A stretch of 64,000 nt of DNA from positions 35,609-99,608 of the forward strand of contig JAQBTR010000001.1 in the NCBI GenBank assembly GCA_027624915.1. Reading direction: 5' to 3'. The notes beneath the pieces were generated by a model. The model did not search any database. It worked only from the letters and a program-made list of their open reading frames with translations, and was not told the origin of the DNA. Source of the DNA: a bacterium (GTDB taxonomy: Bacteria > Patescibacteriota > Minisyncoccia > Ryanbacterales > GWA2-47-10b). The position numbers were made by a program, and so were the translations under genes. Below, one piece after another: positions 52,009-59,370 of the stretch. The stretch's first letter is position 1; each line of letters starts with the position of its first letter.

Positions 52009-52351
52009 TGGTGGAGACGGGCGGAATCGAACCGCCGTCCGAAGAGTAATATAGAAAGAATTTGTTACAAGCTTGTCTAGTTTTTAAGGCTAGAGGTTTG
52101 CTCGATGGGGTGTCGCGATACCGTATCGAGCAGTAGTATCGCCAAGCTCGAATTTATAACACCGGTTACCAGACAGTCGAGCGCCAACTGGGCCGATGGC
52201 CTATGCTATTTAAGCGTAGGCGGGTACGAGCTCTCGCTCGCCAAATAAGTTTGCACTTATCAAGTACACGGACAGTTTTGAAAGAGTTAGCCGTGTCGGC
52301 TCTTGCTTGATCCCTAATATAAAAGCTTCCCCGTCGAAGCCTAGCGTCCCC
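52009..52351 (-). ncRNA. ssrA: tmRNA (transfer-messenger RNA, SsrA), ~343 nt with an encoded CCA end. Predicted tag reading frame resumes at GCA-AAC and reads ANLFGERELVPAYA-stop (UAA at 52210-52212).
   Basis: 5' end GGGGACGCUAGGCUUCGACGGGG (compare E. coli GGGGCUGAUUCUGGAUUCGACGGG). 3' end GGCGGUUCGAUUCCGCCCGUCUCCACCA (T-arm + acceptor + CCA). A 7-bp acceptor stem can form with one G-U pair. Adjacent to smpB. Confidence 0.85.
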
Positions 52352-52422: not shown

Positions 52423-52866
52423 TTATTCGTACTTGAGAGTTCGGCTGATGTTGCGGTCAGACTCACGCTTTTTAATCTTGTCGCGTTTGTCGAACTTCTT
52501 TTTACCACGTCCAACACCAAATTCAAGTTTTAAGTTTCGACCCTTATTATACAACGAAATAGGCACTAATGTCAAGCCCTTCTCGTGCTCTTTTCCAGCC
52601 AGATAGCTAAGCTCTTTTTTACCTAAAAGAAGCTTGCGCGTACGTCCTACATCATAGTCACTTGGAGTGTTTGCTGATTGGTATGGTGGCACATGTCCTC
52701 CAATTAAAAATGCCTCACTTCCGCGGACAATCACGCGAGCTCCATCGAGCTTTGCATCTCCGCGTCTGATTGCTTTTACTTCATATCCAAAAAGCTCGAT
52801 GCCTGCTTCGAACTTCTCAAGAATCTCATAATCAAAATAAGCTTTTTTGTTTGATGCTAGTGCCAT
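52423..52866 (-). CDS. smpB: SsrA-binding protein SmpB.
   Basis: ...NKKAYFDYEILEKFEAGIELFGYEVKAIRRGDAKLDGARVIVRGSEAFLIGGHVPPYQ... SmpB signature; basic C-terminal tail. Confidence 0.9.
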   Translation of the reverse strand: MALASNKKAYFDYEILEKFEAGIELFGYEVKAIRRGDAKLDGARVIVRGSEAFLIGGHVPPYQSANTPSDYDVGRTRKLLLGKKELSYLAGKEHEKGLTLVPISLYNKGRNLKLEFGVGRGKKKFDKRDKIKKRESDRNISRTLKYE

Positions 52867-52938: not shown

Positions 52939-54540
52939 ATGAATATCAACCCAAGACAGGCCGTAAAGGAATTACTATCCAAGGAAATCGGGGACGATGT
53001 CCATTTTTCGGTTGAAATCCCTGAGGTTAAGGGTCGTGGTGACTACTCTACTAATATAGCACTCGCTCGCGCCAAGGTTGAGGGCAAGAATCCTATGGAT
53101 ATGGCCAAAGAGTGGTCAAAAGAGCTTGCTGACAAACACCCTGAGATATTTAGTGAGGTAGTACCACTAGAGCCAGGTTTCATTAATATGCACTTGGCTC
53201 CCAAATATATTTGGAAGCAGGTTGAGGGTTTTCGTAAACGAAAGAAAGCCAAGCGAAAGGGTAGGGCATCAGTTGAGTTTATCTCAGCTAACCCAACAGG
53301 ACCTTTACATATAGGAAATGCGAGGAGTGGTCCAATTGGTGATACCATTTCGAATGTTTTGATGGAGGATGGATACAAAGTAAAAAGAGAATATTTGCAT
53401 AATGACGCGGGAGCTCAAATTGATCGTTTTGGTGAAAGTTTGTGGCACTGGTACCAAGTGGCCATTAATAAACCAAGCGAACTTCCGGAACATGGATATG
53501 AGGGCGAGTATGTAAAAGAAATAGGGCGCGAAGCCGAAGAAAAATTTGGTAAGGAACTTAAAGGTAAGAAGGGGCAAAAAGTGGTAACCGAAATGGCTCT
53601 CGCCAAATTCGAAAAAGAAAATTTTGATGTAATGCGTCACATGGGGGTTGAGTTTGATCTTGTAACCAAAGAAAGCAAGCTCGTCAAGACCAAGACCAAA
53701 AAAGCAATCGAAGATTTGCGCGAGAAGGGACTCCTCGAAGAAAAAGAGGGAGCTACATGGTTTGTACCAAAAGACGAGCACCTCAAGGACCGTGAGACTG
53801 TAGTTATCAAGGGAGATGGCACCTATTTATATTTTGCGAATGACATTGCGTATCACCGCGAAAAGTTTAAAAAAAATGACTTTGTTATTGATATTTTGGG
53901 TGAGAACCATGAGGGGCACGTACCTAAGCTTAAGGCTGTTGCTAATGCCTTTGGTTTTGATGAGAGTAAGTTTGAAGTGCTTATCTATGGTCAGGTTACA
54001 GTCAAGGATGGAGACAAGGTTATATCTATGTCCAAGCGAAAGGGGAACTTTGTAACAGCCGAAGAAGTATTAGAAGAAGTTGGAGTAGATGCCTTTCGAT
54101 ATTTTATGCTTCAGTACGCCCCACGTTCGGGTATGAAGTTCGATCTTGAGCTTGCAAAACAGCAGTCAAAAGTTAATCCTGTCTACTATATACAGTACGC
54201 GCATGCACGCGCTTGTAGTATTTTGGCTAAGGCTGAGACCGAGACACCAGCAAAACCAAAATGGAAAGTACTTGGTACAACACACGAACTCGAGCTTATA
54301 AAAAAATTGATTAGATATCCAGAAATGATGGAAGAAATAGCTCACAGTTTTCAGGTACAGCATTTGGCAAAGTATGCGCACGATTTGGCGCACGCATTCA
54401 CTCGATTTTATGAAAGCACTAAAGTGATTGGCGCTGACGGTGAGCTAGAAGCAAATAGAATCGCACTTGTTACCTTGACTCGCGATACCATCGCACATCT
54501 TTTGAGTCTCATGGGCATCTCAGCCCCAGAACACATGTAG
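52939..54540 (+). CDS. argS: Arginyl-tRNA synthetase.
   Basis: HIGH-class motif ...SANPTGPLHIGNARSG...; N-terminal MNI...; C-terminal DALR anticodon-binding region. Confidence 0.9.
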   Translation: MNINPRQAVKELLSKEIGDDVHFSVEIPEVKGRGDYSTNIALARAKVEGKNPMDMAKEWSKELADKHPEIFSEVVPLEPGFINMHLAPKYIWKQVEGFRKRKKAKRKGRASVEFISANPTGPLHIGNARSGPIGDTISNVLMEDGYKVKREYLHNDAGAQIDRFGESLWHWYQVAINKPSELPEHGYEGEYVKEIGREAEEKFGKELKGKKGQKVVTEMALAKFEKENFDVMRHMGVEFDLVTKESKLVKTKTKKAIEDLREKGLLEEKEGATWFVPKDEHLKDRETVVIKGDGTYLYFANDIAYHREKFKKNDFVIDILGENHEGHVPKLKAVANAFGFDESKFEVLIYGQVTVKDGDKVISMSKRKGNFVTAEEVLEEVGVDAFRYFMLQYAPRSGMKFDLELAKQQSKVNPVYYIQYAHARACSILAKAETETPAKPKWKVLGTTHELELIKKLIRYPEMMEEIAHSFQVQHLAKYAHDLAHAFTRFYESTKVIGADGELEANRIALVTLTRDTIAHLLSLMGISAPEHM

Positions 54541-55502: not shown

Positions 55503-58500
55503 ATGCATGATGAGCATGAGGTCCTTGGATTTTGGGCCCAGCGGAAGATATTCGAGAAGAGTATCAAACAACGCGGGGCGAAAGCCAAGCGTTTTGTTTT
55601 TTTTGAGGGTCCACCATATGCCAATGGTCTCCCTGGTATACATCACGTAGAAGCACGTGCTTTTAAGGATGTTGTTGCGCGCTACAAGACATTGCGTGGT
55701 TTTCGTGTTGAGCGTAGAGCTGGATGGGATACTCATGGTTTGCCAACGGAGATGGCAGTAGAAAAGAAGCTTGGCATCAAATCCAAGCGTGAGATTGAAG
55801 AAAGGATAGGTGTTAAGGCCTTTGTTCAAGCAGCTAGAGAGGACGTGTTTTTCTATAAAAGAGAGTGGGAGCGCATGACCGAGCGAATGGGGTATTGGCT
55901 CGATTTTAAAAATGCCTATGTCACCATGGATAACTCATACATTGAGTCTTTGTGGTGGATTATGAAAGAGTTTTGGGACAAAAAGCTTTTCTATGAGGAC
56001 AGAAAGGTTTTGCCGTGGTGCTCTAGGTGTGGAACGGGACTTTCTACACATGAAGTAGCGCAGGGTTACAAAAAAATTACAGAAACATCTGTTTATGTAC
56101 GATTTTATCTCAAAACACGCAGAGGAGTTCTCTTAGTGTGGACAACAACACCATGGACGCTTCCTGCCAACGTGGCAGCGGCTGTTGACCCCAAGGCAAC
56201 ATACGTAACCATTGATGACCGAGGCGAGAAGTTTATTTTGCATGAGAAGTTGGCGTCCAAGCTATTCCCTAGTGTTGAGCCACAGTTCAAAGAAAAGGGT
56301 AGCGACCTAGTTGGTCTTACGTACGACCCGCCATTTGGTCACGATGACATTCCTTATAAAGTAGTAGGTGCTGATTTTGTTTCAGACAAAGATGGAACGG
56401 GTATCGTACATATTGCACCAGCCTTCGGTGAGGACGATATGCGTGTTGCTAAAGATGAGGAGTTACCCGTTTTGATGACGGTAGATGACGAAGGAAAATT
56501 TAACGATGAAGTTCCACAATGGAAGGGACAGTTTGTAAAAGATGCTGACCCAGACATAATCAAAGACCTAAAGCAAAAGGGTATTTTGTGGCGCGAAGAA
56601 GAGTACGAGCATGATTATCCATTTTGTTGGAGATGTGATTCTCCGCTTATTTATCTAGCGCGCAAGTCCTGGTGGGTGAAAGTGAGCAGTATGCGCCAGC
56701 AATTAGTTGAGGCAAACAAAGAAATTAATTGGTACCCAGAATATCTCAAGGAGGGTCGCTTTGGACAGTGGATTAGTGAAGCAAAAGACTGGGCGTTTTC
56801 CAGAGAACGATATTGGGGGACACCAATTCCTGTTTGGCAGTGTACCGAATGTAACAATTCTGAAATGTTTGGTTCGGTAGAAGAGATGAAAAAGCGTACA
56901 AGGCCATCATTAAATAATTACTTTTTGATGCGTCATGGACTTGCCAAGTCAAATATGCTTGATATTGGTGTTGGCAATCCAAAAGACGATGTGTGGGGGA
57001 TTACCCCAAAGGGAAAACTTCAGGTTAAAAAAGCTATAACAAAACTTAAAAAAGAAGATATTGATTTGGTTATTTCTTCTGATCTTTTACGTACAAAAGA
57101 AACAGCACAGATGATTGCTAAGGAATTACATGTTCCTATTTTGTATGATGAGGATTTACGCGAGATGCAGTTTGGAGACTATGAGCGTAAAAATTCTCGC
57201 CCAATTATGGATGAGTGGGGTTTGACTGCCGAGCGACTCGATATGAAACTTCCTGGCATGGGCGCCGAATCATGGAACGATATTAAAGCACGTATGAATA
57301 AAGTCTTTAAGCGACTTGAGGAACTACATAAAAATAAAAATATTGTCCTTGTTGGCCACGGTGACCCACACTGGTTTTTGGAAGCTATTATGACGGGCTC
57401 ATCTGATCCAGAGGGTATTCCCGATGTTGCCGTCTATCCAACCAAGGGAGATTTTCATAAGGTTACACCTGTTTCTCTCCCTCGAGATGATAAGGGTAAT
57501 CTAGACTTGCACAAGCCTTTTATTGATGAGGTTAAAATCGATTGTACTCGCTGTCGAGCACCCATGCGCCGCACAATTGGAGTAGCTGATGTGTGGTTTG
57601 ATTCGGGCTCTATGCCGTATGCCGCATGGCACTATCCATTTGAGAACAAAGCACAAATCGACAAAAAGATTTCATTCCCAGCAGATTATATAGCAGAGGC
57701 AATCGACCAGACGCGTGGATGGTTTTATAACCTACTATCTGTATCTGTGCTCCTTGGAAAAGGTGCTCCATATAAAAATGTAATTTCACTCGGTCACGTA
57801 CTCGACAAAAAAGGTAAGAAAATGTCTAAGTCAAAGGGTAATGGAGTCAACCCAATGGATCTCTTCGAAAAGTATGGTGCCGATGCCGTTCGATGGTACT
57901 TCTTTACGGTGAATCAACCAGAGGATTCTAAGGTATTTGATGAACTTGATATACAAAAAGCAAAACGAAACTTTCTTGATCTATTAACAAACTCGGCCAA
58001 GTTCTACGAGATGTATAAAACAAGCAAGCGTACCACCAAGAAACACGTCCTTGATGAGTGGGTGCTTGCTCGTCTAGGCGAAGTTAGAGAAGACATGACC
58101 AAAAAAATGGATGAGTATGATATTGTTGGGGCCGCACGAGAACTCGAAAAATTTGTAGCAGAAGATATTTCTAGATGGTATTTGCGTCGTTCGCGTGAGC
58201 GTATGCGGACCGGACAAGGAGTGTCCATCCTACGAACGGTCTTGCTAGAGACGGCAATTCTTGCATCGCCCTTTGTACCGTTCACTTCAGAGATTCTCTA
58301 TACTTCTCTTGGTGGCAAATCAAAGAGCGTTCATTTAAGCGATTGGCCAGAAAAACGAGCTTCCACACGCAAACTATTAACTGACATGCAAGAAGTACGA
58401 ATGTTGGCAGCACGAGGGCTCGAATTGCGTTCCCGTTCGGGATTAAAAATTAGACAGCCCCTTGCATCATTCTCTGTAAAATCACGAAAGTTAAAAGAGA

Positions 58501-58820
58501 AAAAATTGTTAAATGTGCTTGCCGAAGAGCTTAACGTAAAAAATATTCTTATTGGTAAAAAAATAAAGGAGGACGTAGAGCTCGATACTGTTCTTACCCC
58601 AATCTTGAAAGAGGAGGGTGAGGTACGAGAGACTATTAGATTAGTACAGAACATGAGAAAGGAAGAGGGGCTTCATCCAAGAGACCTTATTATGCTTACT
58701 TTATCTGGAACATTTTCAAAGGTATCACTCAAAAGTATTAAGGATGGCGTGCATGCAAAAACGGTTACATTAAAAAATAAGACTGTGAAAGTCGAGATAC
58801 ATGGGATTACAAAAGTTTAA
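55503..58820 (+). CDS. ileS: Isoleucyl-tRNA synthetase (KMSKS type) carrying a ~190-aa in-frame histidine-phosphatase (PGAM-like) domain at aa ~466-660.
   Basis: HIGH region PPYANGLPGIHH; editing domain TTTPWTLPAN...GTGIVHIAPAFGEDD; KMSKS = KKMSKSKGN. Insert carries LMRHGLAKSN (RHG motif) and ...IVLVGHGDPHW... (second catalytic His). Confidence 0.9.
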   Translation: MHDEHEVLGFWAQRKIFEKSIKQRGAKAKRFVFFEGPPYANGLPGIHHVEARAFKDVVARYKTLRGFRVERRAGWDTHGLPTEMAVEKKLGIKSKREIEERIGVKAFVQAAREDVFFYKREWERMTERMGYWLDFKNAYVTMDNSYIESLWWIMKEFWDKKLFYEDRKVLPWCSRCGTGLSTHEVAQGYKKITETSVYVRFYLKTRRGVLLVWTTTPWTLPANVAAAVDPKATYVTIDDRGEKFILHEKLASKLFPSVEPQFKEKGSDLVGLTYDPPFGHDDIPYKVVGADFVSDKDGTGIVHIAPAFGEDDMRVAKDEELPVLMTVDDEGKFNDEVPQWKGQFVKDADPDIIKDLKQKGILWREEEYEHDYPFCWRCDSPLIYLARKSWWVKVSSMRQQLVEANKEINWYPEYLKEGRFGQWISEAKDWAFSRERYWGTPIPVWQCTECNNSEMFGSVEEMKKRTRPSLNNYFLMRHGLAKSNMLDIGVGNPKDDVWGITPKGKLQVKKAITKLKKEDIDLVISSDLLRTKETAQMIAKELHVPILYDEDLREMQFGDYERKNSRPIMDEWGLTAERLDMKLPGMGAESWNDIKARMNKVFKRLEELHKNKNIVLVGHGDPHWFLEAIMTGSSDPEGIPDVAVYPTKGDFHKVTPVSLPRDDKGNLDLHKPFIDEVKIDCTRCRAPMRRTIGVADVWFDSGSMPYAAWHYPFENKAQIDKKISFPADYIAEAIDQTRGWFYNLLSVSVLLGKGAPYKNVISLGHVLDKKGKKMSKSKGNGVNPMDLFEKYGADAVRWYFFTVNQPEDSKVFDELDIQKAKRNFLDLLTNSAKFYEMYKTSKRTTKKHVLDEWVLARLGEVREDMTKKMDEYDIVGAARELEKFVAEDISRWYLRRSRERMRTGQGVSILRTVLLETAILASPFVPFTSEILYTSLGGKSKSVHLSDWPEKRASTRKLLTDMQEVRMLAARGLELRSRSGLKIRQPLASFSVKSRKLKEKKLLNVLAEELNVKNILIGKKIKEDVELDTVLTPILKEEGEVRETIRLVQNMRKEEGLHPRDLIMLTLSGTFSKVSLKSIKDGVHAKTVTLKNKTVKVEIHGITKV

Positions 58821-58830
58821 CATATAGTAT

Positions 58831-59370
58831 ATGTCTCAGTATTATGGGACGGAGGCGATAATTCTTTTCTCTCGTGATTGGGGCGAGGGTGACCGTTTAA
58901 TAACCTTCTATACAAAGGACTTAGGGCGTATAGACGCAATAGCAAAGGGTGTTAACAGAGCAAAGTCAAAATTGCGTGGCCACCTTAATCTTTTTTCTCG
59001 CTTGCGTATCATGGTCACACCAGGGAGGGAGTACTGGAGACTTTTGGATGCTGAACAGACTCCTTTAGACGGCGTGCGTTATGGACTAGCTAGCAAAAAT
59101 GAATATGCAAGGTTTCTTGTACGAGTGTTAGCAGAATCAGCAAAAGACAATGAGGTCTGGCAAGTCCTCGATAGGTTTGAGGGGTTAAAAACTCGTAGCC
59201 AATTATTTTTTGAAAAAGTAAGAATATTAAAGGCTCTTGGACTCATGCCAGATACGGGTTTGATGTGCGCAAAAACATCACGCCGGATAGAGGAGGATGA
59301 TCATGAGGGCTTCATGCCGAGTGCGGGCGAAGAAGGGGTTCTTGAGAAAATTATCGCTCAAAATATATGA
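58831..59370 (+). CDS. recO: DNA repair protein RecO-like (short form).
   Basis: N-terminal OB-fold ...EAIILFSRDWGEGDRLITFYTKDLGRIDAIAKGVNRAKSKLRGHLNLFS... resembles the RecO N-terminus. Confidence 0.55.
   Translation: MSQYYGTEAIILFSRDWGEGDRLITFYTKDLGRIDAIAKGVNRAKSKLRGHLNLFSRLRIMVTPGREYWRLLDAEQTPLDGVRYGLASKNEYARFLVRVLAESAKDNEVWQVLDRFEGLKTRSQLFFEKVRILKALGLMPDTGLMCAKTSRRIEEDDHEGFMPSAGEEGVLEKIIAQNI

Follow-up and report, generated by a model that had tools for sequence, protein, structure and literature searches.

The question raised by this locus is whether an essential aminoacyl-tRNA synthetase can harbour a second enzyme within its core, and what such an enzyme would do there. The locus is the ileS gene of a 64-kb stretch of bacterial DNA (contig JAQBTR010000001.1, positions 35,609 to 99,608; this whole stretch is referred to as the window). 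Its product, an isoleucyl-tRNA synthetase (IleRS), was found to contain a histidine phosphatase domain nested in the subdomain connective peptide 3 (CP3), an insert to which a first-pass annotation made from the letters of the window had already pointed. The same nesting was identified across candidate phyla radiation lineages (CPR, or Patescibacteria), also in valyl-tRNA synthetase (ValRS), while in some genomes the domain is a separate gene directly beside ileS. Judged from sequence, and with a probability of about 0.6, the domain would be an active phosphomonoesterase cooperating with the synthetase, possibly on a ligand of nucleotide type where the synthetic site opens. The features of the host enzyme are as follows.

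55503..58820, + strand: ileS, the type-2 isoleucyl-tRNA synthetase hosting the phosphatase domain, a single unbroken open reading frame (ORF) of 1105 aa
55635..55646, + strand: GIHH (aa 45-48), a non-canonical G-x-H-H form of the class-I HIGH motif, from sequence
56139..56411, + strand: editing motifs WTTTPWT (aa 213-219) and GTGIVH (aa 298-303) of connective peptide 1 (CP1), intact in sequence
57594..57608, + strand: WFDSG, where the Rossmann fold resumes, from sequence; W698, D700 and G702 are invariant
57819..57833, + strand: KMSKS signature (aa 773-777), from sequence

The ORF had been described as an otherwise complete IleRS of the KMSKS type, and this was borne out: the whole product scores 830.4 bits against the NCBIfam model TIGR00392 (ileS; cutoff 621.4), in two matched stretches around the insert, and KMSKS lies at its expected place in the list above. 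The Pfam layout consists of tRNA-synt_1 split by His_Phos_1 (PF00300), followed by Anticodon_1 and DUF5915. Assignment to type 2 rests on the equivalog score, the class-I signatures, the CP1 motifs, the presence of Anticodon_1 with DUF5915, and IleRS2 proteins as the best-matching folds, the nearest solved structures being IleRS2 of P. megaterium (8c8v) and IleRS of T. thermophilus (1ile). In GIHH, positions 1 and 3 of HIGH are exchanged, with G45, H47 and H48 invariant in 119 homologs; the G/AXHH form is a documented variant of active IleRS2 that gives mupirocin hyper-resistance (PMC10485003). The CP1 columns W213-L220, G298, G300 and H303 are likewise invariant (119 homologs). An AlphaFold2 model of the full protein, built from a 119-sequence alignment, is confident throughout (mean predicted local distance difference test, pLDDT, 92; predicted template-modelling score, pTM, 0.86). 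With GXHH, KMSKS, the CP1 editing motifs and the anticodon-binding and C-terminal domains all in place, the synthetase core is intact and looks fully functional by sequence. The ORF encodes the housekeeping IleRS, of type 2, in a relative of Ryanbacteria within CPR/Patescibacteria.

The insert and the CP3 elements that surround it are listed below.

56796..56819, + strand: CP2-CP3 linker FSRERYWG (aa 432-439), from sequence
56841..56852, + strand: first CxxC of the CP3 zinc knuckle (C447, C450), invariant in 120/120
56898..57503, + strand: inserted histidine-phosphatase domain plus linkers (aa ~466-667), from indel boundaries against insert-less IleRSs; the family hidden Markov model (HMM) matches aa 475-669
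56922..57395, + strand: Pfam His_Phos_1 (PF00300) match, aa 474-631, E 7.9e-30 within the whole protein
56931..56939, + strand: RHG motif (aa 477-479) with R477 and the nucleophile H478; R and H in 120/120, G in 114/120
57090..57092, + strand: R530, second phosphate-binding Arg (SSDLLRTKETA), invariant in 120/120
57162..57164, + strand: E554, putative proton donor (LREMQFG); E in 70/120, D in 50/120
57267..57269, + strand: E589 in a conserved G-E-S motif, 119/120
57357..57359, + strand: H619, second catalytic His (VGHGD, aa 617-621), invariant in 120/120
57543..57554, + strand: second CxxC of the CP3 zinc knuckle (C681, C684), invariant in 120/120

When the protein is aligned with three relatives that lack the insert, an indel of ~200 residues stands out cleanly between ...GSVEEMKK and DLHKPFID, and the spacing from RYWG to WFDSG is ~74 aa in ordinary IleRSs (Firmicutes, Chloroflexi, Actinobacteria, archaea) versus 269 aa in the window enzyme. 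The boundaries obtained in this way, 56898-57503, are nearly identical to the in-frame insert first placed at 56898-57483; the junctions read ...KKRTRPSLNNYF... and ...DDKGNL/DLHK.... By itself, the insert scores 108.8 bits against His_Phos_1 (E 3.7e-31; gathering cutoff 21.7), a margin that excludes a chance match, and the RHG and second-His motifs that had been read from the translation were found at aa 477-479 and 617-621. In the AlphaFold2 model, strands and helices alternate over aa 472-654 in a predicted alpha/beta fold, modelled as confidently as the synthetase core (block means of pLDDT 92-98, with 83-86 near aa 570-590); the structure prediction proposed for the full protein thus came out in favour of the insert. 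By its flanking motifs the insert is located between both CxxC pairs, within the Cys4 zinc knuckle that constitutes CP3. This subdomain joins CP2 to the second Rossmann half and is zinc-binding in T. thermophilus IleRS (PMC7191050). In yeast IleRS, CP3 starts directly after the linker ...SRNRYWG, and this linker helps to form the pocket that receives the tRNA 3' end and reveromycin A (PMC7955072); FSRERYWG is the homologous linker of the window enzyme.

Compared with its nearest solved relatives, 8c8v and 1ile, the window IleRS shows 33-37% identity, TM-scores (template-modelling scores) of 0.79-0.89 and the same domain order; it shares the zinc-binding CP3 of the T. thermophilus enzyme and the G-x-H-H motif of hyper-resistant IleRS2. 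In contrast, the top solved IleRS chains (821-1061 residues) are too short to hold an extra domain of ~190 aa, and the window CP3 is ~200 aa longer. No mention of a foreign domain in CP3 was found in the surveyed structural and phylogenomic literature on IleRS.

Placement of the domain in branch 1 of the histidine phosphatases (PF00300) rests on the HMM score, RHG, the second Arg, the acid, the second His and the predicted fold. Within this branch, a profile of the family matched in full length iPSP1 (4ij5, 91.5 bits), PhoE (1ebb, 91 bits) and CobC (6nru, 80 bits), these being listed scores without alignments; residue-by-residue alignments of the insert to CobC show the catalytic residues. The role of E554 as proton donor is presumed from an apparent likeness to the PhoE motif LREIHLGDWEG. 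Structures of cofactor-dependent phosphoglycerate mutase (dPGM) were matched in their N-terminal half only (profile positions ~38-143, 55-60 bits), and identity as a dPGM was rejected on these half-length matches and on the model scores (TIGR01258, 21.8 against a cutoff of 81.7; NF038349, 79.1 against 225). The alpha-ribazole phosphatase model of CobC, TIGR03162, was also rejected (79.1 bits, cutoff 162.9), and SixA (TIGR00249) was matched weakly over its N-terminal ~70 residues (28.9 bits, cutoff 74.5). Because every curated equivalog cutoff was missed, the substrate of no known relative can be transferred to the domain. On these profile matches, the domain is of the PhoE/PspA/CobC phosphatase type and not a phosphoglycerate mutase; its earlier description as PGAM-like is accurate for the superfamily and fails at the finer level, where dPGM scores and structure matches set it with the phosphatases. 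PhoE, iPSP1 (PspA) and CobC share with it the fold family, a length of ~190-200 aa, full-length profile matches of 80-91 bits and the catalytic residues. They differ in being free-standing soluble enzymes with known small-molecule substrates, whereas the window domain and its relatives are nested in the synthetase or encoded against the 5' end of ileS.

The catalytic residues are conserved far beyond the scaffold that carries them. R477, H478, R530 and H619 are invariant in the best 120 homologs, E589 and R597 are present in 119/120, and position 554 is E or D throughout. The full R-H-R-[E/D]-E-H signature was identified in 268 of 283 IleRS-associated or free copies, the exceptions being mostly truncated fragments. 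Mean pairwise identity is 41% for the phosphatase scaffold as against ~66% for the synthetase catalytic core, and an invariant catalytic set on so divergent a scaffold is the pattern of purifying selection on catalysis. A first domain without RHG in two IleRSs (P0176, P0252), its role taken over by an active copy downstream, was suggested by a regular-expression reading and was rejected as HMM alignment finds R-H...R...H in both copies.

Among the full-length IleRSs seen, a single one (P0219; L093 1490-5239) has Trp in place of the catalytic Arg530. In the IleRS-core tree described below it is the sister of a split-type IleRS (L087, 100% bootstrap), and its insert may be a decaying internal copy. 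No His_Phos gene was found near it among the called genes of a contig that ends 1.5 kb upstream of ileS, so that an intermediate of the 'duplicate then decay' kind was not caught.

The domain is widespread among relatives of the window IleRS. An identical protein is present in NCBI on a 112-kb contig of a metagenome-assembled genome (MAG), and the best 120 homologs (46-65% identity, 1100-1212 aa) all carry PF00300 together with the IleRS domains. The survey of CPR orthologs suggested at the outset therefore gave the insert in all 120 of the closest, from independent assemblies. Named lineages among them are Ryan-, Taga-, Nealson-, Wildermuth-, Niyogi- and Uhrbacteria and 'Patescibacteria group', in agreement with the CPR host organism that had been proposed. 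A HMMER search over 1.84 billion cluster representatives returned 630 matches at E<=1e-10; the top 150 of these, which were classified, include 47 domain-bearing class-I synthetases of full length, 72 fragments flanked by synthetase sequence and 26 free-standing proteins of ~190 aa. Species-representative genomes, when scanned, extended the list to Yanofskybacteria, Paceibacterota, Spechtbacterales and Peribacteria, plus MAGs labelled Saccharibacteria.

Two apparent findings of these searches were discarded. A word-indexed search with the insert alone gave two free-standing proteins and missed the query itself, as if the insert were a near-singleton; full-length and exhaustive searches showed this to be an artefact of sensitivity. 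Long CP3 regions in Paenibacillus (L023), Roseburia (L047) and a Clostridia MAG (L040) proved to be alignment artefacts consisting solely of tRNA-synt_1 sequence. One contig titled 'uncultured Gammaproteobacteria bacterium' (L005, CAYOXM010000018.1) encodes a CPR-type IleRS with the insert that groups inside the CPR clade, and it is probably mis-binned or mis-labelled. An IleRS-like protein on a JGI contig (P0243, 1066 aa) has a match to Y1_Tnp (IS200/REP-type tyrosine transposase) in CP1, His_Phos in CP3 and a C-terminal GNAT domain, without KMSKS or an anticodon-binding domain; it may come from a pseudogene or a chimera, or else be a repurposed paralog.

Some synthetases carry more than one copy. 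Two tandem CP3 copies were identified in the Peribacteria-type IleRSs L015 (4453-8925), L016 (4492-8907), P0211 and P0276, while P0176 and P0252 have one copy in CP3 and one that follows KMSKS by ~75 aa and precedes the anticodon-binding domain. These two-domain enzymes reach ~1420-1490 aa. First copies group among themselves, as do second copies, which indicates that the duplication is old.

A second host is ValRS. Among 120 ValRS-like relatives (P0277-P0394, relatives of P0131; loci L003/L004) the domain is present in 71, of which 58 have one copy, 11 two, 1 three and 1 four. Several of the domain-bearing ValRSs are encoded on contigs of 0.7-1.4 Mb, and those with names belong to Gracilibacteria and Peregrinibacteria. 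The usual site, flanked by WWGHxIP and DTWFSS, corresponds to the CP3 position of IleRS, and a second site lies upstream of WWGHxIP. Among themselves the ValRS copies share ~56% identity, but with IleRS or free copies only 30-33%; they group in a clade of their own, and this low identity marks them as a separate, old acquisition. The acid at position 554 is absent from ~1/3 of them.

Of the free-standing forms of the phosphatase that were sampled, most lie beside ileS. The nearest free-standing relatives of the window insert (P0001, P0196, P0200, P0213, P0247 and P0251) are 33-39% identical to it, while family-wide a free-standing protein and its best-matching IleRS insert share a median identity of 47%. 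All six genes are located directly 5' of ileS, accounting for six of the seven free-standing relatives sampled. The stop codon of the free phosphatase gene and the start codon of ileS range from 1 nt apart to 10 nt overlapping. Where the neighbouring ileS is complete (L085, L087, L090, L101), it encodes 931-972 aa without PF00300. The order at split loci (smpB, infC-rpmI-rplT, argS, phosphatase, ileS, recO, a DUF11/DUF7619 protein and a class-II synthetase) matches the block in the window. As a control, 68 non-CPR loci were inspected, and none had a related ORF within 6 kb of ileS.

A tree of the IleRS core (neighbour-joining, insert masked, 889 columns, 200 bootstraps) sets the CPR enzymes apart from insert-less outgroups (82%). 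The three split forms placed in it came together in 0/200 bootstraps, and each lies with fused neighbours: L087 with P0219 (100%), L085 with L011 (89%) and L090 within a fused clade (99%). Since the split forms each group with fused relatives and never together, the fused and split states interconverted at least three times, with both coding sequences staying together throughout.

As to what the domain does, the retention of all superfamily catalytic residues makes hydrolysis of a phosphomonoester its most likely activity, and we infer its catalysis and its coupling to the synthetase from these sequence patterns. Coupling is suggested by fusion and fission without separation, by two hosts using one site, by the extra sites and copies, and by the absence of the pairing outside CPR. 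In the mechanism proposed, IleRS would charge tRNA-Ile as usual, and the inserted domain would hydrolyse a phosphomonoester via a phospho-histidine intermediate, acting together with the synthetase and not merely alongside it. PhoE-like enzymes accept nucleotide monophosphates; this property, with the start of CP3 at the tRNA-3'-end linker, favours a nucleotide-type phosphomonoester. At the mouth of the synthetic site, a ligand of nucleotide type would thus lose a phosphate. Any naming of the substrate is speculative: candidates would be a 2'/3'-phosphorylated CCA end of tRNA, or a 2'/3'-phosphorylated adenosine nucleotide, that would otherwise block charging. The roles suggested at the outset, among them alarmone hydrolysis and proofreading, are likewise speculative. 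It is also conceivable, though rather improbable, that the domain represents a step of CPR tRNA charging not recognised until now, in which the acceptor end, the synthetase or its nucleotide ligand is dephosphorylated, for example in the healing of 2'/3'-phosphorylated or pyrophosphorylated CCA ends made by RNases or toxins. If true, IleRS and ValRS would be combined repair-and-charging enzymes.

Several results weigh against a phosphatase coupled to charging. The trees are of the neighbour-joining kind only, and the free gene beside ileS could partly be a relic of fission and not a product of selection. The scaffold evolves faster than the synthetase core, one free-standing relative (P0232) adjoins secA and is unlinked to any aminoacyl-tRNA synthetase, and no phosphatase was found near insert-less valS at three loci, where the split pattern is not repeated. 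These last three results also speak for the main rival, a housekeeping metabolic enzyme (e.g. phosphoglycerate mutase or phosphoserine phosphatase) carried along by an essential gene. Nested in a constitutive gene of a genome poor in genes and regulators, it would share expression with the synthetase without a mechanistic link to tRNA charging. The preserved phosphoryl-transfer residues would suit such an enzyme, as would the separate protein of split genomes, which presumably works by itself. Moreover, phosphoglycerate mutase was undetected in several shallow Parcubacteria clades, possibly because its forms are over-divergent (Jaffe et al., PMC7304191), and annotation at the gene level would overlook a domain hidden within IleRS. 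However, the dPGM models fall far below cutoff and dPGM structures match in their N-terminal half only; Gracilibacteria ValRSs keep the domain although a complete Gracilibacteria genome lacks glycolysis (PMC7304191); and a passenger fails to predict nesting in the same CP3 of two synthetases, the extra sites and copies, or six of seven free genes abutting ileS. We consider it unlikely, while still the most serious competitor. A further result that tells against a coupled enzyme is a ValRS subgroup in which His619 is replaced by Asn and the proton-donor position by Ser/Ala while RHG, R530 and the domain itself are kept, and a non-catalytic role may apply to this degenerate subgroup. Extended to the whole family, it would make the domain a module whose pocket binds the tRNA 5'-phosphate or backbone, or a phosphorylated metabolite, in a tRNA-binding, regulatory or sensor role or as a brace of CP3. 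Accessory RNA-binding domains are frequent in synthetases, and copy numbers of 1-4 fit avidity better than catalysis. The IleRS copies, at ~41% scaffold identity, keep the nucleophile His, both Arg, the second His and E/D, which is more than binding needs, and the free-standing form appears to work untethered; a purely structural or binding role in IleRS is therefore unlikely on sequence grounds, and for the family as a whole such a reading is distinctly less probable than a passenger enzyme.

A protein phosphatase built into the synthetase would remove an inhibitory phosphorylation from it (e.g. from a serine of the KMSKS loop) or from a partner, and so confer immunity to kinase toxins. The superfamily does include protein phosphatases (SixA, PGAM5, Sts-1), the kinases HipA and HipT inactivate the class-I synthetases GltX and TrpS via a serine of the KMSKS region, and the second insertion site in IleRS lies ~75 aa past KMSKS. 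Against this, the domain is PhoE-sized (~190 aa) and aligns in full length with small-molecule phosphatases, the match to the minimal SixA is weak and confined to its N-terminal ~70 residues, and neither the window nor the related loci examined showed a kinase; we give this explanation little credence. An assembly chimera, an intein or a mobile insertion removed before the protein functions is effectively refuted. Over the insert's first half (56850-57300) the G+C content drops to 0.34-0.38, compared with ~0.41-0.47 in flanking ileS, as might be expected of foreign sequence; this may reflect Lys-rich composition and not necessarily recent transfer. The architecture is common to more than 119 independent assemblies, in addition to the identical protein on the 112-kb contig, which excludes a chimera. 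No Hint or intein Pfam match was found in the IleRS, the junctions show no Cys/Ser and no HN, no meaningful repeats flank the insert, and the 64-kb window contains no paralogous His_Phos ORF elsewhere. Together with purifying selection on the catalytic residues, these results uphold the original view of a genuine accessory enzymatic domain and not an intein.

The coupled phosphatase may be compared with other composite enzymes. A curated precedent for an IleRS with an extra internal enzymatic domain is NF040702, IleRS with an N-acetyltransferase, whose added domain is of the GNAT type and, as suggested by offsets of model coordinates, is located in the CP1 region and not in CP3; the window protein itself was rejected as a member (299.3 bits, cutoff 1999, and no acetyltransferase match). 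The RNase H/acid phosphatase NF005567 (Rv2228c type) joins a nucleic-acid enzyme to a CobC-like His_Phos domain, and the insert matches its phosphatase half with 68 bits, but that fusion is end-to-end instead of nested and involves another partner enzyme. AlaX, YbaK/ProX and CP1 are editing modules of synthetases that occur free-standing or fused, and they resemble the domain as accessory hydrolytic modules that repeatedly switch between a place inside the synthetase and a separate gene. The likeness is one of organisation and not of chemistry, given that these modules hydrolyse aminoacyl esters and have unrelated folds; a histidine phosphatase would not be expected to deacylate tRNA.

The statement that this architecture had not been described holds within the literature searched. 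Full-text searches, which took in specialist IleRS phylogenomics, found no account of an aminoacyl-tRNA synthetase that contains a histidine phosphatase, and recent IleRS phylogenomic studies make no mention of a phosphatase, of CP3 insertions or of CPR. The architecture is not rare, as it is widespread in Patescibacteria and stands unremarked in public databases, where the fused proteins bear generic names such as 'class I tRNA ligase family protein'. As far as tested, the parts belong to known families and their nesting in CPR IleRS and ValRS is new. Synthetases are among the best-studied enzymes and their domain repertoire in bacteria was thought to be essentially catalogued, whereas here a second, apparently active centre of unrelated chemistry is placed inside the core of two essential synthetases, across the large CPR share of bacterial diversity. 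Its retention through repeated rearrangement in extremely reduced genomes implies a needed function. The substrate could reveal a new step of tRNA quality control or repair, or a hidden metabolic enzyme behind gaps in CPR reconstructions; as annotation at the gene level hides the domain, surveys of CPR pathways miss it.

The genes that surround ileS in the window are listed below.

52009-52351, - strand: tmRNA gene (tag peptide ANLFGERELVPAYA), just upstream of argS, ARAGORN
52423-52866, - strand: smpB, adjoining the tmRNA gene
52939..54540, + strand: argS, upstream member of the conserved block, from ORF and translation; the order argS ... ileS is also found in L085, L087 and L090
54583..55269, + strand: cyclophilin-type peptidyl-prolyl isomerase (PPIase) with an N-terminal hydrophobic segment, PF00160, E 4.6e-47
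58831..59370, + strand: recO-like gene, downstream member of the block, PF11967 RecO_N; recO also follows ileS in L085, L087, L090 and L101

The tmRNA is the sole ARAGORN match in the 64-kb window, which contains no tRNA genes, and no Rfam family (e.g. T-box) was matched in the ileS leader. The PPIase gene fills the interval between argS and ileS, the exact place that the free phosphatase gene occupies in split genomes.

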